Source: Elusimicrobiota bacterium (GTDB lineage: Bacteria; Elusimicrobiota; Elusimicrobia; UBA1565; UBA9628). Taken from it: DNA of 64,000 nucleotides. The notes beneath the pieces are model-generated. The model did not search any database, was not told the DNA's origin, and saw nothing but the letters and a program-made list of their open reading frames with translations. A program made the position numbers and the translations under genes. Every line of letters begins with the position of its first letter. The stretch's first letter is position 1. The stretch spans positions 821-64,820 of the forward strand of contig JAHFCF010000004.1 in the NCBI GenBank assembly GCA_023249645.1, read 5' to 3'. This document shows positions 7,915-45,410 of the stretch, in pieces.

Positions 7915-8969
7915 ACGTTCTCAGCGGCCAGCTGCTGGATTGGGTCGATGAAAGGCTGCATGTGCGCCCGCTCATCGAGATGGCCCGGCATAAGGCCGTG
8001 CCGGTGCACCGGGGCAGCGTTTTCTATTACGCGGGCGGGGTCTGTCTCTTCCTTTTTATCCTGCAGGTGGCTTCGGGCATCCTCCTCTTGATGTACTATC
8101 GCGTGGGGGCCGACTCTTCCTATGAGAGCGTCCGGTACATCTCCGCGAAGGTGTCCTTCGGCTGGCTCATCCGTTCGGTCCACAGCTGGGGCGCCAACAT
8201 CATGATCTTCTTCGTGCTCACGCATATGTTCAGCGTCTTCCTGATGAAGGCCTTCCGCAATCCCCGGGAACTGACCTGGATGTCCGGCTGCGTCCTTTTG
8301 GGCCTGTCCATGGCTTTCGGATTCAGCGGGTATCTTCTGCCCTGGAACGAGCTGGCCTTCTTCGCCACGAAAGTGGGGACCGACATCATCGGCCAGGTCC
8401 CTCTCGTCGGCCATTGGATGCTCAAGATCGTCCGCGGCGGCGACGAGGTCACGGGGGCGACGCTTTCGCGATTCTTCGGCCTTCACGTGGCCGTGCTTCC
8501 GGCGCTGCTGTCTGTGACCATCGGGCTGCATCTGACTTTCGTGCAGATCCAGGGCATGGCCGAGGTGCGAGAGGCCAAGAAGACCATGCCTTTCTTCCCG
8601 AATTTCTTCCTGCGGGACGCCATGCTCTGGTTGGTGGTCTTGAACGCGGTCGCGATCCTGTCGGTCTTCTTCCCCTGGGAATTGGGCAAGAAGGCCGAGG
8701 CCTTGTCTTCGGCGCCGGCCGGCATCAAGCCTGAATGGTATTTCCTGTCGCAGTACCAGTTCCTCAAGCTCCTGCCGCCGCGCATCCTCCTGATCCCCGG
8801 CGAGCTCTGGGGGATCATGGTGCTCGGTACGACCGGAGGCCTTTTGTTCCTGACGCCCTTCTGGGAGAAAGCCTTGCCTGAAGAGAGGAAAGAGATCGTC
8901 GTCCGCCTGCTCGGTTGGGGAGGCCTGGCCGTGCTCCTGGCCATGACCCTGTGGGGGTACCTCTCATGA
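7911..8969 (+). CDS. Cytochrome b (fused cytochrome b6 / subunit IV type) of the bc complex
   Basis: 352 aa, multiple TM helices with conserved His pairs, PEWYF motif; ATGA overlap with Rieske gene. Confidence 0.9.
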   Translation: MNVLSGQLLDWVDERLHVRPLIEMARHKAVPVHRGSVFYYAGGVCLFLFILQVASGILLLMYYRVGADSSYESVRYISAKVSFGWLIRSVHSWGANIMIFFVLTHMFSVFLMKAFRNPRELTWMSGCVLLGLSMAFGFSGYLLPWNELAFFATKVGTDIIGQVPLVGHWMLKIVRGGDEVTGATLSRFFGLHVAVLPALLSVTIGLHLTFVQIQGMAEVREAKKTMPFFPNFFLRDAMLWLVVLNAVAILSVFFPWELGKKAEALSSAPAGIKPEWYFLSQYQFLKLLPPRILLIPGELWGIMVLGTTGGLLFLTPFWEKALPEERKEIVVRLLGWGGLAVLLAMTLWGYLS

Positions 8970-10201: not shown

Positions 10202-10208
10202 TCGCTTC

Positions 10209-11630
10209 GTGAATCGGCACGAGAGGCTGGTCGTTCTCATCTGGGTCGCTGGCTCCTTGGCCGGATGCGCCGCCCCTTTGATGCAGGCGTCGACGAAGGG
10301 GGATGCCGAGGCCGCCAGGGCCTGGCTCGACAAGGGTGCGGACCCCGACGTGCGCGGAGGGTATCGCCATGGGGAGACCGCCCTCATGGCCGCCGCGGCG
10401 GGGGGGCATCTCCCCGTCGTCAAGCTTCTCGTGGAACGAGGAGCGAAGGTCAACGCCGCCGGCGATCGCGGAGAAACCGCTCTGATGCGGGCCGTGCATC
10501 ATGGATACCTGCCCATCGTCCAATACCTGATCGAGAAAGGCGCGGACGTCAATCACAAAGGGATACAGGGTACGACCGCCCTGCATTATGCGGCCTGGAG
10601 CAGCCGTGACGAGATCGTCCAATGCCTCTTGGACCATGGCGCTGACGTCAACGCCGCCGACGAGATGACGATCGGCCGTACGCCTCTGGGCCTGGCGGCC
10701 TATTTCGGCGATCAGGCCGTGGCGCAAGTTCTTCTGAGTCGCGGTGCGGATGCGCGCATCCTTGCGGCCAACGGCAAGCTGCCGGCGGAGCTCGCGACCC
10801 AGCGGGGCCATGGGGAGATCTCCCAAATGATCCGGCGCGCCATGGCCGGAGAATTACCCCAGGCGGCGGCATCGGCCCCGGCCTCCTTTTCCGATGAAGA
10901 CATGCCCCAATACCATCTCCGCCAGAAGCCGGACAATTACGCCGTTGTGGTGGGAGTCTCGAACTATGCGGGCCTGCCTCAGGCGCCTTTCGCGCGCCAC
11001 GATGCCCAAGCCGTGCGCGATCATCTCGCCGCCCTGGGCACCCCGCTCGACCACATCCTGTTTCTGACCGACAACGAGTCCACCCGGGCTGGTCTGGTCA
11101 AAACCCTGGAGGCGCGCCTTCCCCGTCTTGCTCAGGAACGCTCCACGGTTTTTTTCTATTTTTCAGGGCACGCGCTTCTCGAACCCAAGACCGGACGCAT
11201 CTTTTTGGCGCCCATGGATGGCGACGCCGAATTCCTTGAAGAGACGGCCTACCCGCTGGAGCGCCTCTCTCAGGATTTGGGAGGGCTCAAGGCGGCTCGC
11301 GTCCTGGCGATGTTGGAATGGGACTTCCCAGGAGTCCAGGAGCCGTCAGTCTCAACTCCAGCGCCCATGGGGAAAATCCTGGCATGGACATCTTCTCGTC
11401 CTGGGGAGTTTTCCGGTACGCTCCCGGAGCAGAGCCATGGGGCATTCACCTACTTCCTGCTGCGCGGTCTCAATGGCGCGGGCCAAGACGGCGCCGGCGC
11501 AATCACGGCCCGAGCCCTCTACGATTATGCATCGGCGCACGTGCAGGAGACAGCGCGCCGGCTCGGCCGCGAGCAGACTCCTCAATGGTCGGCCGTTTCC
11601 GCTGGAGCGGATTCTCTGAGATTCCGCTAG
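10209..11630 (+). CDS. Lipoprotein with ankyrin repeats fused to a caspase-like (peptidase C14) domain
   Basis: GTG start gives lipobox LAGC; >=5 ankyrin repeats (GETALMxAxxxGHLxxVxxLxxxGAxVN); C-terminal YAVVVGVSNY...FFYFSGHA caspase His-Gly block. Confidence 0.75.
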   Translation: MNRHERLVVLIWVAGSLAGCAAPLMQASTKGDAEAARAWLDKGADPDVRGGYRHGETALMAAAAGGHLPVVKLLVERGAKVNAAGDRGETALMRAVHHGYLPIVQYLIEKGADVNHKGIQGTTALHYAAWSSRDEIVQCLLDHGADVNAADEMTIGRTPLGLAAYFGDQAVAQVLLSRGADARILAANGKLPAELATQRGHGEISQMIRRAMAGELPQAAASAPASFSDEDMPQYHLRQKPDNYAVVVGVSNYAGLPQAPFARHDAQAVRDHLAALGTPLDHILFLTDNESTRAGLVKTLEARLPRLAQERSTVFFYFSGHALLEPKTGRIFLAPMDGDAEFLEETAYPLERLSQDLGGLKAARVLAMLEWDFPGVQEPSVSTPAPMGKILAWTSSRPGEFSGTLPEQSHGAFTYFLLRGLNGAGQDGAGAITARALYDYASAHVQETARRLGREQTPQWSAVSAGADSLRFR

Positions 11631-11640
11631 TTTTTTAAAC
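11607..11640 (+). terminator. Weak candidate intrinsic terminator after ankyrin-caspase gene
   Basis: agcgga-(11 nt)-tccgct stem followed by TAGTTTTTT. Confidence 0.25.
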
Positions 11641-11676
11641 ATGACAAATATCATCTTTAACCTTGATGTCTGTCAT
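11641..11676. promoter_or_regulatory. Two tandem ATGAY-N4-RTCAT boxes upstream of the Cyc2-like gene
   Basis: ATGACaaatATCAT (11641-11654) and TTGATgtctGTCAT (11663-11676), 70-100 nt upstream of start at 11743. Confidence 0.3.
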
Positions 11677-11742
11677 TCTCTTGAAAAATAGGAATTGTTA
11701 GATTCTTCAGCCGTTGAATTTTAAAAACAATCAGGGGGAAAC

Positions 11743-13092
11743 ATGCCAGAAGCACAAGGAACCGGGAGCAAAAAATTCGGAGTCGGCTTTATTCTCTTTT
11801 CGGTGCTTTTCACAGCCTGGCTTGTTCCGCCTCTGTATCGCGGGATCCAAGGGATCTGCCCCATGCGGCCGGGCCTTATTAAGGAAGCAGGGGCTGTCCC
11901 TGGCTTCGCCCGCAAATACGGCCTGAGCTGCTCACAGTGCCACACGGCCTGGCCCCTCCTCAATGATTACGGCCGGCAGTTCAAGCTCAACGGCTATGTG
12001 CGCGAACCGGGAAGCAAGGAAGGAGTTTTGGAAGGGTCGGGAGGGTATTGGACTGAGAAGATATTCCCCTGGGGCGTGGTGGCGCGTTCGCGGCCCTATG
12101 ACAAGAACACGACCGTCGACAGGGAGTTCCGCTTCCAACCTATCCAGGACGCGGACTTCTTCGTCGCTGGCGGGGACGCGGCCAAGCATATCTCCTGGTT
12201 CGGAGAGGTCGACGCCAACAACACGACCGACACGGCCTTCAGCGTGAACATGGCCGACATCCAAGCGGGCTACCATCCTAGCCAGTACCTCAACATCATC
12301 GCCGCCCGCCGCGGTTTCTTCGTCATGGATCCCTACCAGAACATCTCCAACTTCGGCAGCCCGACGATCACGGGACGCGCCATCGCCGGAGGCCAGACCG
12401 ACCAGGGCAACCTCTCGGGCAACGTGATGGACCAGACCACCCAGACCATGTTGGCTTTCGGTGAGGTGGACAAAGAGGGATTGGGAGCGCTCTACTACGC
12501 CGCGGGCATGTCGGCCGGAAACGCCAACGACACCGGCACGAGCGCCAAGGCCGGCAACCTGCGCCTGGCCTACGACACGCTCAAGGGCCTCGAGATCGGG
12601 GCCTTCGGCAGCTCGGGACGCGAATACAACGGGCTGGTGGATCAGAACGGCAACCAAGACCGGGTCAAGTTCACCAAATACGGGCTCGACTACACGCTCG
12701 AGGCCAAGGGCTTTGTCAGCCGCGGCGCCTGTCTCGTGTCCAACGAAAAGGACGAACAGTTGGCCAACTCAACGGTGGAGGTGGATGAGAACGGCAATCC
12801 CGTGATCAAGTCCACCACCAAGGCCGCCTATGCCGAACTTCTCTATGTCTATAAGAGGCAGGGCGACACGTTCCCGTTCCTCGTGCCCTTGGTGCGCGAG
12901 AACTGGTACACGACCTTCAACGGCAAGAGGAGCTTCAACTACGTCACGGCCCAGCTGGCCCATTACTTCGCTCCCAACATGAAGGGATTCGTGGAATGGT
13001 CCGGAGACACCAAGCAGGACTTGCAGGGCGTCAATAACGTGAGCTCTGCCAAGAGTTCGCGGTGGAGCCTGCAGTTCGAATTGGGCTTCTAG
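11743..13092 (+). CDS. Candidate Cyc2-like fused monoheme cytochrome c / outer-membrane beta-barrel porin
   Basis: Signal peptide, single CxxCH (CSQCH) within first ~70 aa, then ~380 aa of alternating amphipathic beta-strand-like sequence ending in ...LQFELGF (C-terminal Phe typical of OM barrels). Confidence 0.6.
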   Translation: MPEAQGTGSKKFGVGFILFSVLFTAWLVPPLYRGIQGICPMRPGLIKEAGAVPGFARKYGLSCSQCHTAWPLLNDYGRQFKLNGYVREPGSKEGVLEGSGGYWTEKIFPWGVVARSRPYDKNTTVDREFRFQPIQDADFFVAGGDAAKHISWFGEVDANNTTDTAFSVNMADIQAGYHPSQYLNIIAARRGFFVMDPYQNISNFGSPTITGRAIAGGQTDQGNLSGNVMDQTTQTMLAFGEVDKEGLGALYYAAGMSAGNANDTGTSAKAGNLRLAYDTLKGLEIGAFGSSGREYNGLVDQNGNQDRVKFTKYGLDYTLEAKGFVSRGACLVSNEKDEQLANSTVEVDENGNPVIKSTTKAAYAELLYVYKRQGDTFPFLVPLVRENWYTTFNGKRSFNYVTAQLAHYFAPNMKGFVEWSGDTKQDLQGVNNVSSAKSSRWSLQFELGF

Positions 13093-13111
13093 TCCGACAG
13101 GAGTTCTGTTC

Positions 13112-13639
13112 ATGAAAGGACGAGGCATCGCCGGAGGTCTGGCCATTGCGGCCGTGCTGTGGGGCGCGGGAGAGCTCCGGTCTCAGGATGAGGAGGTCAA
13201 GACATTCCCTTTCGACAAGGGTCCTGAGACCATCGACGTGTCGAGCTATCCCAAGGAACAGCAGGACAACTATCCGGTCTTCGCCGAGAAGTGCTCCAAA
13301 TGCCACACCCTGGCGCGGCCGATCAACTCGCCCTTCGCCCTGCCCGAGGAGTGGGATGCCTACGTCCACAAGATGCAGCACAAGAAGCGTTCAGGCGTGG
13401 ACGCTGACAGCGCCAAGACGATCATCGACTTCCTATCCTATGACTCCTCCGTGCGCAAGAAGGAGATCCTCGCCAAAAAGATCCAGGAGAAGAAGGACGG
13501 CAAGTACGACCTGCAGGCGGTGATGGACGCCGCCGAGAAGCAGGCCCAGACGGCGGCCCCGAAAGATGAATCGCAGCCCAAGGAAGCCGATAAATCTGCA
13601 GCGCCACAAAAGGCGGAGACTCCTAAAAAAGGCGACTGA
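13112..13639 (+). CDS. Periplasmic monoheme c-type cytochrome with Lys-rich C-terminal tail
   Basis: Signal peptide, single CSKCH motif, 175 aa; 20 nt downstream of Cyc2-like gene. Confidence 0.6.
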   Translation: MKGRGIAGGLAIAAVLWGAGELRSQDEEVKTFPFDKGPETIDVSSYPKEQQDNYPVFAEKCSKCHTLARPINSPFALPEEWDAYVHKMQHKKRSGVDADSAKTIIDFLSYDSSVRKKEILAKKIQEKKDGKYDLQAVMDAAEKQAQTAAPKDESQPKEADKSAAPQKAETPKKGD

Positions 13640-13758
13640 CTCTCATTTTTCATCTGACGACGCAAAAGTTTTTTCAAATAGAAGCTGTGCCTTGGAAAAA
13701 GTTCCCCATGGCGACTTGCGGAACGAAAAGTGCTTATTATTTCATCATTTCTTCGATG

Positions 13759-13782
13759 TTTACTTTCAGCGCTGAAAGTAAA
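13759..13782. promoter_or_regulatory. 24-bp perfect palindrome (TTTACTTTCAGC|GCTGAAAGTAAA) upstream of actA; candidate operator
   Basis: Perfect inverted repeat in the 236-nt AT-rich gap before ACIII operon, ~26 nt upstream of a TATAAT (13808-13813). Confidence 0.35.
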
Positions 13783-13875
13783 AACAAAAAAATCTTTCAA
13801 TTTTCAGTATAATTTCATCCCGAGGTCGCCATTTTTTTAGACAATCGGATTTTTAAGACCATTTCACTGGCAGCC

Positions 13876-14928
13876 GTGGTCTTTCTTCGGCTGACCACTC
13901 CGGCCTTGGCCGCGAAGGCTCCTTCCCAGATCCAAAAATCAGCCGCCCTTTTCATCATGAAATGCGCCAAGTGCCACACGATCGGCGCCGGCGACCGCGT
14001 GGGGCCGGATCTGAGGGGGGCCGCTGACAGGCATGAACGCGAGTGGCTCGTGAAATTCATCATGAGTCCGGGAGTCTTTCTGGCCTCTGACCCCGCGGCC
14101 CAGAAACTTCTGGAAAAATACAACGGCGTACGCATGGAGGAGACGCATCTGGCTCGCGCGGACGTGGAAGGCATCCTGGAATATCTCAAGGCCGCCAGCG
14201 CCGGCGGATTGTCCTCGCAGGCGCCTCTTGCCGTCGAGGAAGAGCCCATGCGTCTCAAAGTCCGAATGCCGGAGGAGGGTTTCTCCGTCTTCTGGCCGGG
14301 GCTGGCGTTCCTTTTCCTTCTTTTGGCAGCGGCGGCGGCGCTTTGGCAATTTAGAGGCCATCGGCCGGCGATAGCCCTCTTGTTCGTCTGCGCTGCACTC
14401 GCCTATTGGACCTTCGGCGGCCGGCGCTACTATCACCTTTTGGGGAATCAGCAGGGCTATGAGCCGGTCCAGCCCATCGCTTTCTCCCACGCGCGCCACG
14501 CCGGGAGCCTGGGCATCGCCTGCCTCTACTGCCATTATGCGGCGGAAAGAAGCGATGTGGCGGCCGTGCCTGCGGTCAACGTCTGCATGAATTGCCACGG
14601 CGCCGTGCGCAAGGCTTTCTCTGCCAAGACCCCTTCCCCCGAGATCGCCAAGCTGCTTGCCGTCTGGGAGAAGCATGAGGCCTCGATCCCCTGGGTCAGG
14701 GTGCATCAGCTGCCGGATTACGTCCATTTCACGCACAGGATCCACGTCAACAATAATATCCAGTGCCAGGAATGCCACGGCCCCGTGGAGACGATGGAGC
14801 GCGTCCGGCAGGCCAGCGCGCTCTCCATGGGCTGGTGCATCGCCTGCCATCGCCTCAAGACGGGCGACGCGCCGTCGCACTGGAAGCGCGCCAGCGGGCC
14901 GCTGGACTGTGCGGCCTGCCATTGGTGA
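13876..14928 (+). CDS. actA: Alternative complex III subunit ActA, hexaheme (extra N-terminal class I monoheme domain + pentaheme domain, two TM helices)
   Basis: CAKCH...GP.L class-I domain, two hydrophobic helices, then CLYCH, CMNCH, CQECH, CIACH, CAACHW; GTG start. Confidence 0.85.
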   Translation: MVFLRLTTPALAAKAPSQIQKSAALFIMKCAKCHTIGAGDRVGPDLRGAADRHEREWLVKFIMSPGVFLASDPAAQKLLEKYNGVRMEETHLARADVEGILEYLKAASAGGLSSQAPLAVEEEPMRLKVRMPEEGFSVFWPGLAFLFLLLAAAAALWQFRGHRPAIALLFVCAALAYWTFGGRRYYHLLGNQQGYEPVQPIAFSHARHAGSLGIACLYCHYAAERSDVAAVPAVNVCMNCHGAVRKAFSAKTPSPEIAKLLAVWEKHEASIPWVRVHQLPDYVHFTHRIHVNNNIQCQECHGPVETMERVRQASALSMGWCIACHRLKTGDAPSHWKRASGPLDCAACHW

Positions 14929-14936
14929 GAGAGAAC

Positions 14937-17813
14937 ATGCACGAGCCACCCCAGGACCCATTCAACGCCGGCGACAGCCTGACGCGGCGCGACTTCCTCA
15001 AGCTCCTCTCGACCAGCTTCGCGGCGCTCTCCCTGGTCGGCTGCAAACTGCGCCCGCCCAAGGAAAAGATCATCCCCTTCCTCCAACAGCCCGAGGAGTC
15101 GGTTCCCGGGCTGGCGTCCTGGTATGCCTCGACATGTTCCGGCTGCCCGGCCGCCTGCGGCGTGCTCGCCAAGAGCCGTGACGGCCGCCCCATCAAGCTG
15201 GAGGGAAATCCCGACCATCCTCTCTCTCGCGGCGGGCTCTGCGCGCGCGGCCAGGCCACGGTGCTCGACCTTTACGACTCCCAGAGGCTCCGGACGCCTT
15301 GGCAGGGCGCCTCTCCCATCTCCTGGGCCCAGGCGGATGCGGCCATCATCGCCAAGCTTAAGAAGTCCGACGCGATCCGGATCGTCAGCCGCACGGTCAG
15401 CAGCCCCTCGCTTCTGGCCGCCCTGGAAAAGTTCAAGCAGCGCTTTCCCGCCGCGCGACACATCGTCTACGAGCCCCTGTCGAGCTCGGCCATCGTGGAG
15501 GCCCACCACCGAACCCACGGCCAGGCCGTTCTGCCTCATTATCACTTCGACCGCGCGCGGGTGATCGTCAGCTTTGACGCGGATTTCCTGGGGACCTGGA
15601 TCTCCCCGGTCGAGTTCATCAAGGATTGGTCCGCCAACCGCCGCCTGGACAAGGAGCGCGGGCTCATGTCCTGGCACGCCCAATTCGAGCCCCGCCTCTC
15701 CTTGACCGGGACCAACGCGGATCTGCGCCGCCCGCTCAAGCCCTCCCAGGAATTCGCCACGTTGGCGGCCTTGGGCCGCATGGTCGCCCGTCGGGTGGGC
15801 TGGCAGGGCCCACTGCCCCCGGAGGAGGGGGCCCCCGGCGTGGCTGAGAGCCTCTTGGAGCACACCGCCGGCATGCTCACGGACGCCAAGCGGCGCAGCC
15901 TGGTCGTCAGCGGCTCCCAGGACCCTGACGCGCAGATGCTCGTCAATTGGATCAATGTCCTGCTGGACAATTACGGCTCCACCCTGGACATCGAGCGTCC
16001 CTCCCGGCAGAACCGCAGCGACGATGCGGCGATGGATCAGTTGATCGAAGAGATGAAGCGCGGCCAGGTCTCGGCCCTCCTGTGCCTGGACGCCAACCCC
16101 GCCTATGACCACCCGCGGGCCGCGGATTTTGTCCGCGCCATGGGCCGGGTGCAGCTTTCAATCGCCCTGGCCGACCGCAAAGACGAGACAGCCGCCCTCT
16201 GCGGTTTCCTCTGTCCGCTCTCCCACAGCCTGGAGTCTTGGGGCGATGCCGAGCCCGTGCCCGGCGTCCTGAGCCTGCAGCAGCCGCTGCTCTCCCCGAT
16301 CTTCGAGAGCCGCTCGGCTCTGGAGACCCTGCTGCGCTGGTCCGGCCAGAGCGTGAGCGCCTATGACTTCGTCAAGGAGCATTGGCGCCAGAACGTTTTT
16401 TCTCGCCGCAAAGGGAAGCAGGGCTTCACTTCTTTCTGGGATGAGGCCCTGCGGCGAGGGGCCGTCACGGTCGCGGCCGCTGCCTTGCCTGCCGGTCGAT
16501 TCGTCCCGGACGCGCTCTCCCGCCTGAAGCCTGCGCGACGTCCGGCCAAATCAGGCGACTTTGAGCTGGTGCCCTATGCCAGCACGGCCCTGGGAGATGG
16601 ACGCCAGGCCAACAATCCCTGGCTGCAGGAACTGCCGGATCCGATGTCCAGGGTCAGTTGGGGCAATTACGCCTCATTTTCCCCCGGCGACGCCCAAAGG
16701 CTTGGTCTGGAGGAGGGACGCGTGGTCCGGCTTTCGGTCCCCGGTCGGCAGGCGGAACTCCCCGTCCACATCCAGACGGGCCAGGCCGAAGGCGTGGTGG
16801 CAGCGGCCCTGGGCTATGGCCGCAAGAACGCGGGCCCCATCGCCGCCAACCATCCCATGGTCAAGATGCTGCCTTTGGAACGGGATCTTCTGGGTGGGGC
16901 CGACCTCTATGCCTGGCTCAAGACCCAGACCGTTTCCGTGACCGTGACTCCGGGACGCAGTCCCCTGGCCAAGGTCCAGATCTACGATTCCCTGACCGAT
17001 CCCCTGATGGGCCAGAAGCGTCCTTTTGTCCGCGAGACCACCCTGCAGGAGTACGTCCAGGACCCGCGCAGTGGCAATCCTGAAGTTCCTGAGGAGAAGG
17101 GTCTGTGGCCTCGCCATGAATACAAGGGACACAAATGGGGCATGGCCGTGGATCTCAATTCCTGCATGGGCTGCGGGGCCTGCGTCGTGGGCTGCCAGGC
17201 GGAGAACAACGTCCCGGTGGTCGGCAAGGCCGAGGTGCGCAAGAGCCGGGACATGGCGTGGATACGCATCGACCGCTACTATGAGGATGATCGGACGTCC
17301 TTCCAGCCCATCCTCTGCCAGCACTGCGACAACGCCCCCTGCGAGACCGTCTGCCCGGTCTTGGCCAGCGTCCACTCCACGGAGGGGCTCAGCATGCAGG
17401 TCTACAACCGCTGCGTGGGAACCCGCTACTGCAGCAACAACTGCCCCTACAAGGTGCGCCGCTTCAACTGGTTCGACTACGCGCACCAGGACCTGGTGCA
17501 GAACATGGCGCTCAACCCGGACGTCACGGTGCGATCGCGCGGCGTCATGGAGAAATGCTCCTTCTGCGTGCAGAGGATCTACTCGGCTAAATTCCAGGCC
17601 AAGCAGGAGGGGCGCCAGCTCAAGGACGGGGACGTCATCCCCGCCTGCGCCCAGAGCTGTCCGGCCGACGCCCTGGTCTTCGGGGATTTGAACGATCCCA
17701 ACAGCCGGGTCTCCCGCTTGGCGCGGGATTCGCGCAGCTATCGGGTGCTGGCCGAACTCGGCGTGGGACCGTCCATCTTCTACAGGACCAAGGTCCGTAA
17801 TCGGAGGGTCTAG
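14937..17813 (+). CDS. actB: Alternative complex III subunit ActB (molybdopterin-oxidoreductase-like domain fused to 4x[4Fe-4S] ferredoxin domain)
   Basis: Tat signal TRRDFLK, CSGCPAACG cluster, C-terminal CMGCGACVVGC / CQHCDNAPC / CSNNCPY ferredoxin motifs; ~958 aa. Confidence 0.9.
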   Translation: MHEPPQDPFNAGDSLTRRDFLKLLSTSFAALSLVGCKLRPPKEKIIPFLQQPEESVPGLASWYASTCSGCPAACGVLAKSRDGRPIKLEGNPDHPLSRGGLCARGQATVLDLYDSQRLRTPWQGASPISWAQADAAIIAKLKKSDAIRIVSRTVSSPSLLAALEKFKQRFPAARHIVYEPLSSSAIVEAHHRTHGQAVLPHYHFDRARVIVSFDADFLGTWISPVEFIKDWSANRRLDKERGLMSWHAQFEPRLSLTGTNADLRRPLKPSQEFATLAALGRMVARRVGWQGPLPPEEGAPGVAESLLEHTAGMLTDAKRRSLVVSGSQDPDAQMLVNWINVLLDNYGSTLDIERPSRQNRSDDAAMDQLIEEMKRGQVSALLCLDANPAYDHPRAADFVRAMGRVQLSIALADRKDETAALCGFLCPLSHSLESWGDAEPVPGVLSLQQPLLSPIFESRSALETLLRWSGQSVSAYDFVKEHWRQNVFSRRKGKQGFTSFWDEALRRGAVTVAAAALPAGRFVPDALSRLKPARRPAKSGDFELVPYASTALGDGRQANNPWLQELPDPMSRVSWGNYASFSPGDAQRLGLEEGRVVRLSVPGRQAELPVHIQTGQAEGVVAAALGYGRKNAGPIAANHPMVKMLPLERDLLGGADLYAWLKTQTVSVTVTPGRSPLAKVQIYDSLTDPLMGQKRPFVRETTLQEYVQDPRSGNPEVPEEKGLWPRHEYKGHKWGMAVDLNSCMGCGACVVGCQAENNVPVVGKAEVRKSRDMAWIRIDRYYEDDRTSFQPILCQHCDNAPCETVCPVLASVHSTEGLSMQVYNRCVGTRYCSNNCPYKVRRFNWFDYAHQDLVQNMALNPDVTVRSRGVMEKCSFCVQRIYSAKFQAKQEGRQLKDGDVIPACAQSCPADALVFGDLNDPNSRVSRLARDSRSYRVLAELGVGPSIFYRTKVRNRRV

Positions 17814-17819
17814 AGACCG

Positions 17820-19196
17820 ATGTCTGAAAAACATTTCTCAGTCCTGCGCGTGCCACTCGTCGACGGCGACAAGGATTGCCGGCAGGTCACCCGGGACATC
17901 TGCGCTCCCCTTCAAGTCGGCCCCACCCGCCTTTGGTACATCAGCTTCGCCGCCGCCGTGACGGCCTTGCTCATCGGCGTGACCGCGGTCACGGATCAGA
18001 TCTGGACCGGCATCGGGACCTGGGGCCTCAATAAGACGGTCGGCTGGTCCTGGGACATCACCAACTTCGTGTTCTGGGTCGGCATCGGCCATGCCGGCAC
18101 GCTCATCTCCGCCATCCTTTTCCTCTTCCGTCAGCACTGGCGCACCTCCATCAACCGTTCGGCCGAGGCCATGACCATCTTCGCCGTCATGTGCGCCGGA
18201 GTCTTCCCCGTCATCCACATGGGTCGGCCCTGGCTGGCCTATTGGGTCCTGCCCTATCCCAACCCCATGGGGCCTCTGTGGGTCAACTTCCGCTCCCCCT
18301 TGCTGTGGGATGTCTTCGCCATCAGCACCTATTTCACCATCTCGCTGACCTTTTGGTACGTGGGCCTTCTGCCGGACCTGGCCACCGCGGCCCGGGAGGT
18401 CGCCGAGCCTTGGCGGCGGCGCCTGTACAGCTGGCTGAGCCTCGGCTGGGACGGCTCCCAGAGGACCTGGTCCCACTACGAGAAGCTTTATCTGCTGCTG
18501 GCCGGACTGGCCACGCCGCTGGTCTTCTCCGTGCACACCATCGTCAGCTTCGACTTCGCCACCTCGATCGTCCCCGGCTGGCACACGACGATCTTCCCTC
18601 CCTACTTCGTCTGCGGCGCGATCTTCTCGGGCTTCGCGATGGTGCTCAGCCTCATGCTCATCGCGCGCCGGGTCATGAACTTCGAGGACTACATCACCCT
18701 GCGCCACATCGACGCGATGTGCAAGATCACGCTTCTCACCTCGCTCATCGTCGCTCTGGCTTACTCGACCGAGCTCTTCACCGCCTGGTACAGCGTCAAC
18801 CCTTACGAACGCTTCGCCTTCCTCAACCGCATCGAGGGCCCCTACCACTGGTTTTATCTGGTGATGATGACCTGCAACGTGGCCGTTCCCCAGGCCCTTT
18901 GGTCCAAGCGCGTGCGCACCACGCCCTGGGTGGTGTTTCTCATCTCGATCGCCATCAATATCGGCATGTGGCTGGAGCGCTTCGTGATCATCACGGTGTC
19001 CCTGCACCGGGATTTCCTGCCTTCCAGCTGGACGATGTACCATCCGACCTATATCGAGATCGCCACCTTCATCGGCAGCTTCGGACTCTTCTTCACCTGC
19101 TTCCTCCTTTTCTGCCGCCTGCTGCCGATGATCGCGATCAGCGAGATCAAGGGCGTGCTCCATCACGCGCGCCGCGCCCCGGGGGACGAGTCATGA
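17820..19196 (+). CDS. actC: Alternative complex III subunit ActC (NrfD/PsrC-family quinol-interacting membrane subunit)
   Basis: 458 aa polytopic membrane protein, NrfD-like; position after ActB. Confidence 0.9.
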
Positions 19197-19711
19197 ACCG
19201 CCTCTGGGTGGGGATCTTCGACTCGCACGAGCATCTGTTGCGCGCGACGCGCTTGGCCCGCCAGCGCGGCTTGACGATCCACGATACCTATGCGCCCTTC
19301 CCCATCCACGGCATGGATGAGGCCATGGGCCTGGAGCCGTCGCCCCTGGGATGGTTGTGCTTTCTCTTCGCCATGACAGGTCTGACCTTGGCGCTCTCAT
19401 TCCAATACTGGGTCTCGGTCTTCGACTGGCCCATGAACATCGGCGGAAAATCCTACAATGCCTCGCCCGCGCTGCTGCCCATCGCCTTCGAGTTCACCGT
19501 CCTGTGCGCCGGATTGGGCAGCGTGGCGGCCTTCCTGTTCCTGCGCCGGCTCTCCCCGGGCAAAAAGCCGGCCCTGGGCGGCTTGGGCGCTCTCGATGAC
19601 CGATTCCTGCTGGCCCTCCAGGCCGGGCCCGAGGCCTCCGCCGAAGAACTGCGCCGTTTCCTGCAGACGCAGGGGGCCTTGGATATTCACGAGGTGGCGC
19701 CAGACTCATGA
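19193..19711 (+). CDS. actD: Alternative complex III subunit ActD (DUF3341-type membrane subunit)
   Basis: [26 protein letters not shown]... with two TM helices; ATGA overlap with actC stop; only the in-frame 3' part of ORF 18191..19711 is real. Confidence 0.8.
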
Positions 19712-22056
19712 GGCGAAATCCCCTGCTGGCGGCAGGCCTTCTGCTCGCGGCGGCTGTCCTCACCTTCCTTCTGGCCGCCCGCCGCGACCTTAAGGAGCCG
19801 CACATCCACCTTTTCAGCGACATGATCACTTCTCCCGCCTACCACTCCCAAAGGCCCAATCCGGTTTTTCGCGACGGCCAGACCCAGCAGGCGCCGCCTC
19901 CCGGGACGATCCCCAGGGGATTTACGCCGTTTCATTACGGACCAGGCAGCGATGAGCGCGAGCGCGCCGGCAACGAGCTCAAGAACCCATTGGTGCCCAG
20001 CTATGAGGTCATGACTCGGGGCAAACATGTTTTTGAGAATTTCTGCGCCCATTGCCACGGACTCAAGGGGCGCGGCGATGGGCCCGTGGCCAGGGCTTTC
20101 CCTTCTTTTTCCTTTCCGGTCGCCAGCCAATCAGCCTACGCGCTCAAGGATGGGACTCTGTTCCACATCATCACCTGGGGCCGCAACCTCATGCCCTCGC
20201 ACTCTTCCCAGCTCTCCCAGGCGGATCGCTGGCAGCTCATCTATTATCTGCGCGACCTGCAGCGCCAGGAGATCGTGCGCCTGGGACCTCTGGCCGCCAT
20301 CCCCGAGGATCCGCGCCGGCGGGGCCTGGTCTCCAGGGATTACGGGCGCGAGCTCTTCGCCCAGAACTGCGCGGGCTGCCACGGGGAGGAGGGCCGCCAT
20401 CCCTTGCCGGGCATCCCCACCCTCCATGCTCCCAGCGTGCTGGCCATCGCCGAGGACAGCTATTATTGGGACATCATCAACCATGGGCGCCGCGGCACCC
20501 AGATGCAGGCTTGGAAGGATATCCTGACCGCCAGCCAGATCCAAAGCCTGATCGCCTATATCCGCTCATGGGCGACGCCGGTGACGGAACTCACCAAGAT
20601 CCTGGCTCAGCGCGGCGACTCCCAGCGCGGGCAGACGCTTTTTGCCCGGCAGTGCGCCGGCTGTCATGGAGCCGACGGCCGGGGAGGCATCGGGATCTCG
20701 CTCAAGGCCCCTTCGTTCATGGCGATCGTCTCGGATCAGTTCCTGCGCGACACCATCGCCATGGGCCGTGAGCACACGGCCATGCCCTCTTCCTATGATT
20801 TCAAGCCCGCGGATATCGCGGATATCATCGCGTACTTCCGCAGCTGGTCCGAGGCCGCTGCTGCCTATGTGGATGTGGCGCCCCTGATTTCGGCTGCTTC
20901 GGCATCGAACGGAGCCAAGCTCTTTCAGGCCCGATGCGCGGGCTGTCATGGAGCCAAGGGGGAAGGCGGGATCGGATCGCGGCTCAACAGCGACGGCTTT
21001 TTGGCCATGGCTGACAATAAATTCCTCTATCGCGTGATCGTGGAAGGCCGGCCCGGCACCGAGATGCCCGCCTGGCGCTTCCTCTCAGCCACCGAGCTCG
21101 CCGGGCTCATCGCCCAGATCCGCGCGTGGCAGAAGTCTCCCTCCGTGGTTTTGTCCACCGGGCCGGTCAAGGGCCGCTCTGAGTTCGGCGAAGTCCTCTA
21201 TCAGAAGGAATGCATCAAGTGCCACAGGGCCGGCGGGGCCGGCGATCTGGGAACGCAGATCGGCAATCCCGCCCTCCTGTCACAGGTCAGCGACCAGTTC
21301 CTTTGGCGGACGATCGCCTATGGCAAGAAGGGCACGGAGATGCAGGGCTTCCTCAAGAGGACGCGCAACCCGCTGCCCGAGGAGGATATCGGCCATCTCG
21401 TCGCCTATCTGCGGCAGATGCAAAAAAATCCGCCGCAGGAACTGCTCAAACGAACCTATTCCTGGGCCTCAGCAGCGGACGGAAAAAAAGTTTTCGAGGG
21501 TAAGGGCAAGTGCTTCAAGTGCCACGGGCTCCATGGGGAAGGCGGCAGCGGACCTTCCTTGGGAGGTCCCGGATTTCAGAGAGTGGCTTCAGCCGGCTTC
21601 ATCGCGGCCACGCTGGTGCTGGGCCGCGACAACACGGAAATGAAATCCTATGTCCGCGGCGGCGATGTCCAGCTCGGCGAGGAAGACATCGAGAACGTCT
21701 CGACCTATGTCCGCGGCTTCGAGAAGAATCCGCCTGCCGCGCCCCGGCAGGTGGACCGCTCCGAGATCCAGGTCAAGGCAGGACGCGCTCTCTTCCTGCA
21801 GAACTGCGCCAAGTGCCATGGCCGGCAGGGGCAGGGCTTGCACGGTAAGAAGGAGGGCGAGTTCGCGCCTTCCCTGAACAACGTGGATTTCCTCAGGGCG
21901 GCCGATGACAACTTCCTGCTGGCCACCATCGCCCTGGGCAGGCCCGGTACGCCCATGCCGTCCTTCGCCAAGGGCGACGTCGCAGTCCAACCGCTCCAGG
22001 CCGAGCAGATCCGCCAGGTGGTGGCGTTCATCCGGTCCTGGGAGAGGGGAAAGTGA
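19708..22056 (+). CDS. actE: ActE-like cytochrome c subunit extended by six additional class I monoheme cytochrome c domains (7 CxxCH total)
   Basis: N-terminal TM anchor and ActE-like region with CAHCHG, then CAGCHGEEG, CAGCHGADGRGG, CAGCHGAKGEGG, CIKCHRAGGAGD, CFKCHGLHGEGG, CAKCHGRQGQG each followed by G(T)xMP Met-ligand motif; ATGA overlap with actD. Confidence 0.85.
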   Translation: MRRNPLLAAGLLLAAAVLTFLLAARRDLKEPHIHLFSDMITSPAYHSQRPNPVFRDGQTQQAPPPGTIPRGFTPFHYGPGSDERERAGNELKNPLVPSYEVMTRGKHVFENFCAHCHGLKGRGDGPVARAFPSFSFPVASQSAYALKDGTLFHIITWGRNLMPSHSSQLSQADRWQLIYYLRDLQRQEIVRLGPLAAIPEDPRRRGLVSRDYGRELFAQNCAGCHGEEGRHPLPGIPTLHAPSVLAIAEDSYYWDIINHGRRGTQMQAWKDILTASQIQSLIAYIRSWATPVTELTKILAQRGDSQRGQTLFARQCAGCHGADGRGGIGISLKAPSFMAIVSDQFLRDTIAMGREHTAMPSSYDFKPADIADIIAYFRSWSEAAAAYVDVAPLISAASASNGAKLFQARCAGCHGAKGEGGIGSRLNSDGFLAMADNKFLYRVIVEGRPGTEMPAWRFLSATELAGLIAQIRAWQKSPSVVLSTGPVKGRSEFGEVLYQKECIKCHRAGGAGDLGTQIGNPALLSQVSDQFLWRTIAYGKKGTEMQGFLKRTRNPLPEEDIGHLVAYLRQMQKNPPQELLKRTYSWASAADGKKVFEGKGKCFKCHGLHGEGGSGPSLGGPGFQRVASAGFIAATLVLGRDNTEMKSYVRGGDVQLGEEDIENVSTYVRGFEKNPPAAPRQVDRSEIQVKAGRALFLQNCAKCHGRQGQGLHGKKEGEFAPSLNNVDFLRAADDNFLLATIALGRPGTPMPSFAKGDVAVQPLQAEQIRQVVAFIRSWERGK

Positions 22057-23216
22057 TGAGCGAGAGAGAGGGGATTTTTCGTCCGGATCAAAGGACCGTT
22101 CTGCGGCTCTGCATCGCAGCGGGCCTGGCGGCTTTTGCGGTCGGCCTGTGGAGGGCTCCCCACCGCGCCTGGGCCGGCCTGCTGCTCGGCAATTTTTATT
22201 TTCTGTCTTTGGCCCTGGCGGGAGCCGTCTTCCTGGCCGTGCAATATGCCGCCGGCGCCGGCTGGTTTGCCCTCTTGAAGCGCATCCCCGAGGCCATGAC
22301 CGCCTATCTGCCCGTCGGCGCAGGGCTGGTGGGCTTGCTGGGTCTCTGCGGGCTGCGGGATCTCTATGTTTGGGCCAACCCGGCCACGGCTTCCAATGAC
22401 CCGATCCTGCTGGCCAAGGCGGCGTTCCTCAATGTCCCCGGCTATCTCCTCACGGCCGCGGTCTGCCTGCTCCTCTGGCATTTCTTGATCCGAGGACTCG
22501 TGGCCAATTCCCAAGCCCAGGATGACAACGGCGATCTGGCTTATACGGCCAAGAACGCCCGGTTGTCCTGCATCTTTTTAGTCGTGTTCGCGCTGACTTT
22601 TTCCCTGGTGAGCATGCAATGGCTCATGTCCCTGGAGCCGCACTGGTACAGCACGATCTATCCCTGGTATCTGTTCGGGGGGATCTTCGTCAATGCCGTC
22701 GCCGTCATGACCCTGCTGCTCCTGCTTTTGCGCCATCGGGGGCTGCTGCCGGAGGTGCGCGCCGGGCACCTGCATGATCTCGGAGAATATCTCTTCGCGT
22801 TCAGCGCGTTGTGGGCTTATCTCTGGTTCTCGCAATACCTCCTGATCTGGTATTCCAACATCCCTGAAGAAACCGTTCACTATGCGGCACGCTTTGGTCC
22901 GGGTTGGAACATCCTCTTCTGGGCCAACCCCGTGGTCAACTTCATTGTTCCCTTCATCCTTCTGCTGGAGGAGAGGAGCAAGAAAGACGAGCGGAGGCTT
23001 TTGGCCGCGACGCTGGTTTTGATCGCAGGCCACTGGCTGGATCTCTACCTGCTTGTTTTTCCAGCGATCCTTCCCCGTCCGCTCCTGGGATTCATCGAAC
23101 TCGGGATGTTTTTGGGTTTGGCGGCCGCCTTTCTTTTGCGATTCGATCAGGCCTTTCGCCGAGCCCCGCCGATCCCGTCGCGGGATCCTTTTTTAGGCGA
23201 AAGCCTGCATCATTAG
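22056..23216 (+). CDS. actF: Alternative complex III subunit ActF (second NrfD-like membrane subunit)
   Basis: ~386 aa polytopic membrane protein; start ATG 22056 overlaps actE stop by 1 nt (or GTG 22053). Confidence 0.85.
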   Translation: MSEREGIFRPDQRTVLRLCIAAGLAAFAVGLWRAPHRAWAGLLLGNFYFLSLALAGAVFLAVQYAAGAGWFALLKRIPEAMTAYLPVGAGLVGLLGLCGLRDLYVWANPATASNDPILLAKAAFLNVPGYLLTAAVCLLLWHFLIRGLVANSQAQDDNGDLAYTAKNARLSCIFLVVFALTFSLVSMQWLMSLEPHWYSTIYPWYLFGGIFVNAVAVMTLLLLLLRHRGLLPEVRAGHLHDLGEYLFAFSALWAYLWFSQYLLIWYSNIPEETVHYAARFGPGWNILFWANPVVNFIVPFILLLEERSKKDERRLLAATLVLIAGHWLDLYLLVFPAILPRPLLGFIELGMFLGLAAAFLLRFDQAFRRAPPIPSRDPFLGESLHH

Positions 23217-24863
23217 TTAAGGCTTGAGCACCGCGCCGTCCGGGTGGCATTCCAGGCATTTGGCTCGGAAATCATGCTTGAGCGGCACGCGCTTGTGCGC
23301 GCCGATGTCGTGGCAGCTCACGCAGCCCATCATGTCGGTGTGGGCTTTATGCGGCATGGTCTTGCCGGCGAAGCGCACCGTTTCCGGAGGAACTTTCACC
23401 CCGATGCGGCCGTGGCATTGCAGGGCGCAATAGCTGCCGGAAAGCAGGGGCTCAGAGGAGATGTCGGGAAGATCGGCGTGGAGTTCTCTTCCCGCTTCGT
23501 CGAGGCTGCGGTCCAGAGTGCGCAACAGGACCGAGGCAAGGTAGATGTTGTGCGGGCCGTGGGCTGCTTGCAGGAAGGCGCGTAGACGCTCCGCCCGCTT
23601 CACGGCTGCTGCAGCCGCTGGCTGCGGGGTCTTCTCCAAGGCTGAGCGCGCGGCCGCGATCTTGTCGCCGGTCTTGGTCATGGCGGAATCGAGTTCCGCG
23701 CGCATCTCCTCCAGGATCCCCTGGAATTTGGCGCCGTGGCACTTGACGCAGGATTCGGGGGAAGGCTTCATAGTGTGGCCGCGAAAATCCGTGTCCGGTC
23801 CGGTCTCCGCCTGGTAGTGGCAGCCGTTGCAGTCCACATGGGCCAGATACATGGGGCTGGCCAGCTCCGGCAGGCCCACGGCCAGGTCCGGTCTCAACTT
23901 TCCGCAATAGAGCTGCAGCTGAGCCAAGTGCTTGTCCTCATGGCAGAGGCTGCAGTCGAAGACCAGGGTCGGCGGATGTCCGGCTGGAGCGGCGGCCGGC
24001 GCCGCGGCGGCGGCCGCGCCGGGCAGCTTGAGCGGCTGCTCTTGGGTCTGGAACCCATGCCGGATCTCTTCGTGGCAATGGAAGCAGGCGATGTTGTGCT
24101 TGGTGACGTGGTTTTCGTGGATGAATGGGATATCGCCGTAGCGGGCGAGATTCTCAGGCTGGTTGTGGCAGAGCAGGCAGCGTTCCTGCGGGGCTTTGCC
24201 CTTGCCCTGCACGGCTTCGAGATGGCAGTTCTGGCAGGAGACTCCCTGCCGGGTGACGAAGTCGCGGTGATTGTAGGTCATGTTGCCGAGCTGGAACGAT
24301 TTTTTCGGGAGATCGTGGCAGCCCAGGCAGCCCCCGATGGGCTTGAGTTCCTTGCCCTCTCCGCGCCCGCGGAAATGGCACAGGAAACAGGTATCATAGG
24401 TCACTTCGATATGCTTGCCGACCACGACTTGGGAATGGCAGGAGACGCATCGCAGCTGCCGGCCGCGGCGGGTTTCGGTGATGTGCGGCCGATGATCGAA
24501 GTGGATCCCGCTCTTGGTGAGCACCTTGCCTTGCAGCAGGCGCGTGGCGTGGCAGCCGGAGCGCAAACAGGAAGAGTCCTCGACCTCGGCAAAGGGCTTG
24601 GAGGAGTAGGTGCGGGTCACGTATTTGACTACCTGGGAGAGGGCCTGGAACTTCTTCCAGAGCAGGGTCCGGTGCGAGCTGGGGGGGTAATGACACTCCA
24701 CGCAGGCGATGTGATTGTGCTTGGAGGAGTGCCAGGCTTGGTAATAGGGCTCCATGATGTGACAGGAGCGGCAGAAGGAGGGGCTTGTGGAGTATTTGAC
24801 CAGACCGGCCATGATCAGAAGGACGGCCAGGCCCAGGCCGGCCAGCATCCGGATTGGTTTCAT
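23217..24863 (-). CDS. Membrane-anchored NapC/NirT/NrfH-family multiheme cytochrome c (13 CxxCH + 2 variant CX3-4CH motifs), ImcH-like
   Basis: N-terminal TM helix followed by FCRSCHIMEPYYQAWHSSKH...CVECH (NapC/NirT signature start), then CVSCH, CFLCH, CLGCH, CQNCH, CLLCH, CFHCH, CSLCH, CNGCH, CVKCH, CVSCH, CLECH plus CLRSGCH and CALQCH. Confidence 0.8.
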   Translation of the reverse strand: MKPIRMLAGLGLAVLLIMAGLVKYSTSPSFCRSCHIMEPYYQAWHSSKHNHIACVECHYPPSSHRTLLWKKFQALSQVVKYVTRTYSSKPFAEVEDSSCLRSGCHATRLLQGKVLTKSGIHFDHRPHITETRRGRQLRCVSCHSQVVVGKHIEVTYDTCFLCHFRGRGEGKELKPIGGCLGCHDLPKKSFQLGNMTYNHRDFVTRQGVSCQNCHLEAVQGKGKAPQERCLLCHNQPENLARYGDIPFIHENHVTKHNIACFHCHEEIRHGFQTQEQPLKLPGAAAAAAPAAAPAGHPPTLVFDCSLCHEDKHLAQLQLYCGKLRPDLAVGLPELASPMYLAHVDCNGCHYQAETGPDTDFRGHTMKPSPESCVKCHGAKFQGILEEMRAELDSAMTKTGDKIAAARSALEKTPQPAAAAAVKRAERLRAFLQAAHGPHNIYLASVLLRTLDRSLDEAGRELHADLPDISSEPLLSGSYCALQCHGRIGVKVPPETVRFAGKTMPHKAHTDMMGCVSCHDIGAHKRVPLKHDFRAKCLECHPDGAVLKP

Positions 24864-45407: not shown

Positions 45408-45410
45408 GCC

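Follow-up and report, generated by a model that had tools for sequence, protein, structure and literature searches.

Which partners does an alternative complex III (ACIII) exchange electrons with when its ActE subunit carries seven c-type haems in place of one? This question is raised by an operon found in a 64,000-nucleotide stretch of an Elusimicrobiota genome (assembly GCA_023249645.1, contig JAHFCF010000004.1, positions 821 to 64,820), which will be referred to as the window. The operon, actABCDEF, consists of six co-directional open reading frames (ORFs) located at positions 13876-23216 in the canonical order, and encodes a complete ACIII. A preliminary description made from the sequence had already proposed this identity, and the matches of the products to the chains of solved ACIII structures have borne it out. 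The added haems of ActE belong to an array of six class I cytochrome c domains that is conserved in a whole family of proteins. In our reading, to which we assign a probability of about 55%, this array would act as a periplasmic relay between the quinone-coupled core of the complex and outer-membrane partners, with the uptake of electrons from extracellular Fe(II) as the likeliest physiology.

A complete ACIII with a seven-haem ActE

The CxxCH motifs of ActE are located at amino acids (aa) 113, 221, 316, 410, 502, 602 and 700, each of them followed by a G..M(P) motif for the Met ligand, and Pfam recognizes class I cytochrome c domains in seven distinct parts of the chain (PF13442, 3e-73; PF00034, 6e-64). 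The core matches ActE from solved complexes, with residues 17-205 aligned to 6f0k_E (2e-22) and residues 30-186 to 6btm_E (2e-24), and ActE chains are also the top Foldseek matches, which is consistent with an ActE fold. A transmembrane helix is predicted at aa 6-24 by both hydropathy and the AlphaFold2 (AF2) model. Because the first Cys of the protein is that of the haem motif at aa 113, no lipobox exists, and the subunit appears to be helix-anchored, whereas a lipid anchor is described for ActE of the solved complexes. The following stretch (aa 26-72) is predicted to be disordered, as would be expected from the arm that wraps the complex in ACIII, and leads to the ActE domain (aa ~75-195). 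Confidence of the model dips at aa 191-200, between the core and the array, which is modelled as six helical domains of ~95 aa with a predicted local distance difference test (pLDDT) mostly above 85, the overall predicted template-modelling score (pTM) being 0.71. Judged from this model, the extension reads as a defined array joined to the core by a hinge. All seven domains combine a CxxCH, a distal Met and a predicted all-alpha fold, as corresponds to class I cytochromes c, haem attachment being predicted. When compared with solved structures by Foldseek, none of them spans more than about one quarter of the chain (one or two domains), with a best TMq of 0.17.

The preliminary description had taken the first ~200 aa for a true ActE and the rest for six tandem class I domains with CxxCH and Met ligands. 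Both views agree with the Pfam annotation and motif count, with the alignment to the Rhodothermus and Flavobacterium chains (which recognizes the ActE core as well as an ActA of the F. johnsoniae type), and with the AF2 model, in which core, low-confidence hinge and six helical domains can be distinguished. Regarding the anchor, described at that time as lipid/TM, the transmembrane helix stands and the lipid appears to be absent.

Contigs of at least three independent samples encode a protein identical to the 782-aa chain. In addition, a search of 5.8 billion proteins has revealed more than 80 ActE clusters of 766-808 aa and 47-71% identity in metagenome-assembled genomes (MAGs) of Elusimicrobiota and Planctomycetota, in which the haem motifs are kept and the source label is merely "c-type cytochrome". 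This recurrence in three samples and the conservation of the orthologues confirm ActE as a single, real gene. In an alignment of 27 family members, none of the seven haem motifs varies, and the same holds for six Met ligands, the seventh being nearly invariant. In a larger alignment of 43 sequences that includes distant relatives, the six C-terminal CxxCH are invariant, as are the Met ligands of four of the six domains, those of the other two being nearly invariant. Eight further full or partial loci hold act genes around a seven-haem ActE.

A seven-haem form of this subunit is unusual. ActE is listed in reviews as a one-haem subunit (PMC8076601, PMC9386147), and a single CxxCH was found in ActE from all 56 control ACIII loci of Bacteroidota, Acidobacteriota, Ignavibacteria and Bdellovibrionales (56/56; ~180-320 aa on the longest ORF), which were drawn from a scan of species genomes with an ActA alignment. 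When the ActE core (aa 1-205) was searched exhaustively against 1.84 billion representatives, most matches were one-haem proteins of 180-260 aa, and just two seven-haem proteins were present among the best 150 representatives at 50% identity. Other forms included a few proteins with two haems, two with four haems, an ActE joined to an unrelated multihaem domain, and fusions of ActD with ActE (P0234, P0236, P0235, P0353, P0338 and P0254 are extended or fused representatives). The survey of polyhaem ActE that the preliminary description had suggested has therefore yielded the long clusters mentioned above together with two- and four-haem variants. As read from these sequences, ActE has been extended repeatedly in evolution. 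A metagenome scan with the ActE alignment retrieved generic class I patterns, without true family members among its matches. No published description of a seven-haem ActE was found, although the subscription literature may already mention long forms; the protein is apparently a conserved and undescribed variant.

The remaining subunits are those of a standard ACIII, and the features that define ActA, ActB, ActC, ActD, ActE and ActF were all found. ActB matches 6btm_B at 1e-180 and holds the Pfam Molybdop_Fe4S4 and Fer4 domains. ActF obtained no family in the Pfam scan and was identified through its sequence matches in the PDB (2e-66 to 6btm_F, 2e-54 to 6f0k_F). ATGA coupling, proposed originally for several junctions, occurs at ActC/D and ActD/E, while ActE/F overlap by GTGATG and gaps of 8 and 6 nt separate ActA/B and ActB/C, respectively. 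The early count of 13 c-haems (six in ActA and seven in ActE) coincides with the number of CxxCH motifs. The locus is a genuine ACIII of an Elusimicrobiota genome, and the encoded complex is predicted to act as a quinol:cytochrome c oxidoreductase. The enolase encoded in the window points to the same phylum, its named top matches being Elusimicrobia without exception. The related complex Qrc was considered and excluded, as ActD, ActE and ActF are present and the NCBIfam scores for QrcA (67, cut-off 180) and QrcC (223, cut-off 400) are low. As had been noticed before, reading of the neighbourhood revealed no terminal oxidase gene within the operon; a gene for qNOR, a nitric oxide reductase that depends on quinol, is located 33 kb off, and no cytochrome oxidase gene was detected in the act locus of the window or in the sampled related loci.

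ActA was also regarded initially as haem-expanded. Its CxxCH motifs, at aa 30, 216, 237, 297, 321 and 345, are distributed between an N-terminal class I monohaem domain (CAKCH) and a pentahaem domain (five CxxCH inside aa 216-349; 1e-48 to 6btm_A, 8e-34 to 6f0k_A), which according to hydropathy and alignment are separated by a two-helix membrane hairpin (~14287-14421). The protein aligns with 6btm_A in two segments (residues 12-109 at 7e-10 and 166-327 at 5e-36), the first of them pairing with residues 46-144 of that chain, and PF00034 matches aa 21-106, as in the six-haem type of ActA, with a multihaem domain also recognized by Pfam. The six haems, the extra domain and the hairpin are therefore real, and the unusual status given to them was overstated. 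In F. johnsoniae the sixth haem sits in a mobile domain that cryo-electron microscopy did not resolve and that serves electron delivery (PMC8552683). The ActA-alignment scan of species genomes yielded generic patterns, and its listed matches were mostly from Bacteroidota, with one short Elusimicrobiota contig; among these matches, dozens of Bacteroidota loci were covered over the whole length of the six-haem form. Since this architecture has been published for F. johnsoniae and is common in Bacteroidota, the six-haem ActA is, as judged from the alignments, an already known form.

The start of ActA is uncertain, because codons for a signal-peptide-like stretch (IFKTISLAAVVFLRLTTPALAA/KAPSQ; window 13810-13878), which aligns with the signal peptides of the orthologues, lie in frame upstream of the GTG at 13876 without a canonical start. 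This upstream stretch contains neither an ATG, GTG or TTG start nor a Shine-Dalgarno sequence, while nearby genes show clear GGAGG-like sites. The true start is probably located upstream of the GTG, with ATT 13849 or ATT 13861 as candidates.

Table 1. Location of the ACIII operon, of its neighbours and of related gene sets (window positions, unless a locus is named)
Feature	Coordinates	Strand	Characteristics
Cyc2-family fused cytochrome-porin	11743-13092	+	449 aa, one CSQCH; proposed outer-membrane partner
Small monohaem cytochrome c	13112-13639	+	175 aa, CSKCH; CSKCHTLARPIN; weak SorB-like cytochrome match
AT-rich gap before actA, 236 bp	13640-13875	.	perfect TATAAT at 13808-13813 and in-frame ActA signal-peptide-like codons
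ActA, six-haem form	13876-14928	+	350 aa counted from GTG
ActB, fused molybdopterin-like/iron-sulfur subunit	14937-17813	+	twin-arginine translocation (Tat) motif TRRDFLK and lipobox-like LVGC
ActC, NrfD-like quinol-binding membrane subunit	17820-19196	+	PF03916; 2e-185 to 6btm_C
ActD, two-helix membrane subunit	19193-19711	+	PF11821 over the full length, 2e-49 (Pfam); two hydrophobic segments; ATGA overlap at both ends
ActE, whole	19708-22056	+	782 aa, 7 CxxCH
ActE core, aa 1-207	19708-20328	+	N-terminal transmembrane helix, linker, ActE monohaem domain (CAHCH at aa 113)
ActE extension, aa 208-782	20329-22056	+	six tandem class I (His/Met) cytochrome c domains
ActF, second NrfD-like membrane subunit	22053/22056-23216	+	matches to solved ActF chains
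13-haem membrane-anchored cytochrome, NrfH/NapC-like N-terminus	23217-24863	-	13 CxxCH; NrfH 1e-18; Cytochrom_NNT
Three-haem cytochrome	33361-33780	-	
MtrB/PioB-like porin	34872-36863	-	
Decahaem cytochrome	36829-37728	-	
11-haem cytochrome fused to cytochrome b561, CbcL-like	40336-42378	-	
Array and Nap-like gene set	L006 4054-16499; L007 3974-18823; L004, L005, L090, L091 1-4200		ACIII and Rieske/cytochrome b loci

Genomic company of the six-domain array

A co-localization of ACIII with cyc2 had been mentioned in the preliminary description for other organisms, overlooking that a Cyc2-family gene lies ~0.8 kb upstream of actA in the window itself, which strengthens the point. Cyc2 proteins are defined by the motif AXPXFAR[Q/K][T/Y], a CXXCH, a PXL four residues on, and a length of at least 365 aa (Keffer et al. 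2021, PMC8406198). The haem context of the product, AVPGFARKYGLSCSQCHTAWPLL, fits this pattern, its length exceeds the minimum, and a hydrophobic segment at aa 13-31 could act as export signal according to hydropathy. The motif is separated from the CXXCH by 3 residues (~5 in the paper), a spacing shared by all 61 aligned homologues, canonical-looking ones included, in which the motif is kept. The AF2 model (pLDDT 87.5, pTM 0.82) exhibits 16 long strands, the number predicted for the porin of this family, and Foldseek matches it to 16-strand general porins (TMt 0.6-0.7). The protein ends in F, and its gene has a GGGGG Shine-Dalgarno sequence. Neither the Pfam nor the NCBIfam scan gave a match for this ORF, which was identified by the published motif. 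About 100 homologous clusters were found, nearly all of them from Elusimicrobia MAGs and labelled "hypothetical protein", and the weakest matches look like canonical Cyc2. By analogy, the protein is predicted to be an Fe(II) oxidase. The Cyc2 members tested (three according to Keffer et al.) are Fe(II) oxidases, in vitro or, for the PV-1 form, by heterologous expression, and a potential of +208 mV has been reported (PMC8406198). The presence of Cyc2 in Elusimicrobiota has been described earlier, with no mention of ACIII (PMC8357290).

The Cyc2-like proteins of this phylum also hold a conserved segment, W-[LV]-x-PP ... C-P-[VM]-R-P, between the hydrophobic N-terminus and the haem motif (window 11840-11870; columns 55-66 of alignment A4), which is absent from the other Cyc2-like matches and may represent an atypical lipidation site.

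Between the Cyc2-family gene and actA lies the gene for a small monohaem cytochrome, to which the family scans gave no firm assignment. Its hydrophobic N-terminus resembles a signal peptide by eye and was not picked up by the hydropathy scan. Orthologues are encoded just 5' of ActA in locus L089 (3589-4041; 56% identity) and further 5', with two genes between, in L003 (2609-3130; 61%). This protein is a candidate for a periplasmic adaptor, a shuttle or an extra subunit.

The position of the Cyc2-like gene varies among the relatives: it is upstream in the window and in L003, and follows the operon in the other two, immediately and with the same orientation in L172, and with the opposite orientation in L089. 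In L088, a 62%-identical relative, each flank of the operon (1-3827 and 13804-21088) carries a decahaem cytochrome paired with an MtrB/PioB-type porin. After one of these pairs comes a class I cytochrome, an arrangement known from MtoABD. A Rieske/cytochrome b/dihaem c complex follows in the same locus. Among the 25 ActE clusters with at least 57% identity, the window's own counted, 9 apparently share a contig with a Cyc2-like cluster, in contrast to none of the more distant ones, contig sharing having been deduced from the equal size of the longest contig. The genomic link of this subclade to Cyc2 or MtoAB-type genes is real. As Cyc2-like or decahaem/MtrB-porin genes recur beside the subclade, an outer-membrane partner is plausible, a recurrence that leaves the direction of flow unfixed. 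Moreover, Cyc2 or decahaem/porin genes take the place of Nap-like genes in four different arrangements, which argues for selection over chance.

The array itself is not restricted to ACIII. Distant homologues of 890-1050 aa from Binatia, Hydrogenedentes and Planctomycetota (P0091-P0120) hold it behind a membrane-anchored multihaem N-terminus, collinear, with 33-36% identity over the whole alignment and all CxxCH aligned. Their operons (L006, L007) encode a GltD-like flavoprotein, a Rieske protein and a cytochrome b, and downstream a molybdoenzyme related to NapA/Fdh, with a score under the NapA cut-off, together with a pair of NapG-like proteins, one NapH-like and one YHS-NapH-like protein, and a ferredoxin. 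The same neighbours accompany a stand-alone form of 647 aa (P0086), composed of an anchor and the six domains. In the ACIII loci L004, L005, L090 and L091 (51-54% identity), NapG/NapH/YHS/NapG-like genes lie directly 5' of actA. Because the array recurs on two unrelated quinol-oxidizing complexes beside the same periplasmic redox set, the comparison argues that it may be a general periplasmic relay, reused on ACIII and on Rieske/cytochrome b complexes. The set of NapA/Fdh-related molybdoenzyme, NapG, long NapH, YHS-NapH and ferredoxin, which accompanies the array recurrently, looks like an uncharacterized periplasmic redox system.

Within ActE, identity between any two of the six domains is 30-49%. 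Domains in the same position share 44-63% identity with a Planctomycetota orthologue and 46-62% with a stand-alone homologue. As same-position domains are closer than paralogous ones, the array is, on the evidence of these identities, old and fixed in its domain order. A recent tandem duplication of the six domains was considered and excluded by the same comparison.

Several other genes of the window are related to electron transfer. The gene for the 13-haem cytochrome is convergent with actF, with zero intergenic bases, occupies the same position in L002 and has a similar counterpart in L003, less than 9 kb away; it may be part of the ACIII system. A cytochrome b gene overlapped by a nine-haem cytochrome c gene (7911-10201, + strand), which form a Cbc-type quinol-oxidizing pair, lies upstream of the block formed by the ankyrin, cyc2 and ACIII genes. 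The ankyrin-repeat protein, which also holds a caspase (C14) domain, is encoded between these cytochrome genes and cyc2 (10020-11630, + strand), and an ankyrin-repeat protein occupies the equivalent position in L003 (1-1064), where the caspase domain was not seen. A second electron-transfer cluster extends over 33361-42378 (- strand; Table 1). Further downstream, an Hdr/Mvh-like set (44013-50408, + strand) encodes a CCG-domain protein, an HdrA-like flavoprotein and the small and large subunits of a NiFe hydrogenase, and the region 55100-60799 encodes a hemerythrin/PAS protein, the qNOR and a hybrid-cluster protein. At 4858-6422 (+ strand), two paralogous genes for Lgt, the prolipoprotein diacylglyceryl transferase, overlap in tandem.

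Partners and direction of electron flow

In the reading we favour, the ActE core would occupy the place that it has in the solved structures and trade electrons with the haem chain of ActA. The six-domain array, attached through the hinge of lower confidence, would be a built-in periplasmic relay that replaces soluble cytochromes and links the quinone-coupled core to periplasmic or outer-membrane partners. In this subclade, the likeliest partners would be the Cyc2-type cytochrome-porin and the small monohaem cytochrome, and possibly the decahaem/MtrB-type porin-cytochromes. With extracellular Fe(II) as the likeliest source, the array would then feed ACIII uphill to quinone at the expense of the proton-motive force and/or hand electrons laterally to terminal oxidases or reductases. 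Sequence does not reveal which way the electrons flow. A periplasmic wire formed by all 13 haems and a complex running in reverse, both put forward in the preliminary description, are hypothetical. Uptake from Fe(II) is favoured because the Cyc2 proteins tested oxidize Fe(II), His/Met haems are normally of high potential, and the Nap-like set is replaced by outer-membrane cytochromes. Class I haems with His/Met ligation usually have high potentials, compatible with accepting electrons from Cyc2. The combination of Cyc2 and ACIII is, in addition, a published model for neutrophilic iron oxidizers (PMC4643136).

Several points weigh against this proposal and account for the moderate probability given to it. 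The relatives are all metagenome-assembled, so that the case rests entirely on metagenomic sequence, and gene proximity is no proof of physical contact. The AT-rich gap before actA suggests that cyc2 and actA are transcribed separately, and the TATAAT in it hints at a promoter separate from that of cyc2; no -35 element matching this box was found, and a scan of 11500-14100 for promoter and terminator consensus yielded nothing above the shuffled expectation. A relay to the outer membrane also presupposes that the modelled array is long or extended enough to reach it. Other routes are available in the window (the cytochrome b plus nine-haem pair, the CbcL-like protein, the 13-haem NrfH-like cytochrome and the decahaem/porin pair), and therefore Cyc2 need not talk to ACIII. 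A purely iron-specific role is difficult to reconcile with the NapA/NapGH-like genes that adjoin the array in relatives. Since half of the sampled family (L004, L005, L090, L091) has NapG/NapH/YHS-like genes upstream, with no porin-cytochrome there, the ancestral role of the array was probably not related to iron, as far as gene content can tell. Finally, reverse electron flow has never been demonstrated for any ACIII, and its placement in the iron-oxidation model was called "highly speculative" (PMC4643136).

The alternative that survives best is a complex working in the forward direction, in which menaquinol is oxidized and the array acts as a distribution hub that hands electrons to periplasmic terminal enzymes, with Cyc2 in a separate pathway or sharing the hub. 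In relatives, the acceptor proposed is the NapA-like molybdoenzyme; in this genome, it would be oxidases or N-oxide reductases that depend on cytochrome c and are encoded elsewhere. Forward activity is the only one shown experimentally for ACIII (PMC8552683, PMC5928083), and the extra haem domain of ActA in F. johnsoniae has exactly such a delivery role (PMC8552683). The array stands beside NapA-like, NapG, NapH-like and YHS genes in the ACIII loci, the Rieske/cytochrome b loci and the stand-alone case described above, and His/Met haems of high potential are known to suit acceptors at the level of nitrate or oxygen. However, the window contains neither a Nap-like gene nor a cytochrome c oxidase, and none was found within 10 kb in its subclade, which has swapped the Nap-like genes for those of Cyc2 or decahaem/porin pairs in four different arrangements; the qNOR of the window, as is known for its family, takes electrons from quinol and not from cytochrome c. 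The forward hub remains a strong competitor, which we consider possible and clearly less probable than electron uptake.

A bolder version of the uptake reading, in which the seven-haem ActE would span the periplasm as a rigid haem rod and dock directly on Cyc2 or on the decahaem/MtrB porin-cytochromes, is doubtful. Such a rod would form one trans-envelope conduit without any diffusible carrier and run ACIII in reverse from Fe(II) to quinone. If true, it would be the first architecture of this kind, and the reverse role long postulated for ACIII in iron oxidizers would gain its first concrete mechanism.

Electron flow in the outward direction has also been considered, with ACIII oxidizing quinol in the role of CymA, ImcH or CbcL, and the array passing electrons through porin-cytochromes to Fe(III), Mn(IV) or an electrode. 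The decahaem and MtrB/PioB-type porin pairs on both flanks of the operon in L088, the pair located 11.6 kb downstream in the window, the multihaem quinol oxidases of CbcL-like and NrfH-like type, typical of metal reducers, that the window carries, and the ACIII-like clusters proposed for iron reduction in MBNT15 (PMC9386147) are in line with this option. It is nevertheless opposed by the Fe(II) oxidase activity of the Cyc2 members tested so far (PMC8406198) and by the low-potential multihaem quinol oxidases that the genome already dedicates to this purpose. Class I His/Met haems are, in general, too high in potential for an efficient reduction of ferric minerals. Metal reduction by outward flow is possible but agrees poorly with the type of haem, and is the most improbable of the directions considered.

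The weakest alternative, that a frameshift, a chimeric assembly or a read-through has fused actE to separate cytochrome genes, found no support, the sole irregularity of the operon being the ActA signal peptide without canonical start codon, and can be dismissed because the identical protein occurs in three samples and more than 80 orthologous clusters are equal in length and collinear in their domains, to which the translational-coupling overlaps on both sides of actE and the continuous, confident AF2 model can be added.

Significance and comparison with known systems

The route by which electrons leave or enter ACIII is still debated, and ActE is dispensable in Flavobacterium. In this context, six added high-potential haems on ActE would indicate evolutionary plasticity at the exit side of ACIII, and that the complex can take a ready-made relay also used by Rieske/cytochrome b complexes. 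The repeated adjacency to Cyc2 or MtoAB-like genes in free-living Elusimicrobiota provides a concrete candidate, open to testing, for the connection still missing between iron oxidases of the outer membrane and the quinone pool, and suggests a role of this phylum in iron cycling. A large and stable multi-cytochrome module would also be attractive for structural and bio-electrochemical work. The interest for bioenergetics and iron-cycling research is solid, on a basis that consists of metagenomic sequence.

Among the characterized complexes, the closest is ACIII from F. johnsoniae (6BTM; Sun et al. 2018; Lorencik et al. 2021, PMC8552683), which shares the six subunits and their order and provides the best sequence matches for ActA, ActB, ActC, ActE and ActF. 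As in the complex described here, its ActA holds an extra class I monohaem domain and its ActB combines a Tat signal with a lipobox. In contrast, its ActE is a protein of 162 aa with one haem, described as lipid-anchored, compared with 782 aa, seven haems and a helix anchor, and the complex forms a supercomplex with cytochrome aa3, whereas no oxidase gene is found near the Elusimicrobiota operon. ACIII from Rhodothermus marinus (6F0K) and from Roseiflexus and Chloroflexus (6LOD, 8K9E) share the core architecture and the monohaem domain of ActE (2e-22 to 6f0k_E), but have a five-haem ActA, a one-haem ActE and, as acceptors, caa3 oxidase/high-potential iron-sulfur protein or auracyanin.

Other expanded forms of ActE are simpler. 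A four-haem "ActE-like" protein is known from the MBNT15 bacterium SHF-111 (PMC9386147). This protein, as well as P0235, P0353, P0234, P0236 and P0338, shares with the seven-haem form the ActE core and the C-terminal c-type domains, with fewer haems and without the conserved array of six class I domains. In P0234 and P0236, the sequences of which were read by eye and not aligned, the added domains are not collinear with the array. The cytochromes of 890-1050 aa from Rieske/cytochrome b operons do share the array, and differ in having a multihaem N-terminus in place of ActE and a Rieske/cytochrome b plus GltD-like partner. Dihaem class I cytochromes, such as cytochrome c4, CcoP and the actinobacterial QcrC, match single pairs of array domains, two domains against six or seven.

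With respect to iron oxidation, the Cyc2/Cyc1/ACIII model for Gallionellaceae and Zetaproteobacteria (PMC4643136, PMC8406198) coincides with the system described here in a Cyc2-family protein, an ACIII and a proposed uphill branch to quinone. The two systems differ in that, in those bacteria, ActB is split, actE is annotated as standard and the soluble Cyc1 is invoked, whereas the relay of the Elusimicrobiota complex is fused to ActE. Furthermore, in the two genomes tabulated for that model the locus tags of cyc2 and the act genes are well separated, in contrast to the Elusimicrobiota window, where cyc2 stands beside the operon.

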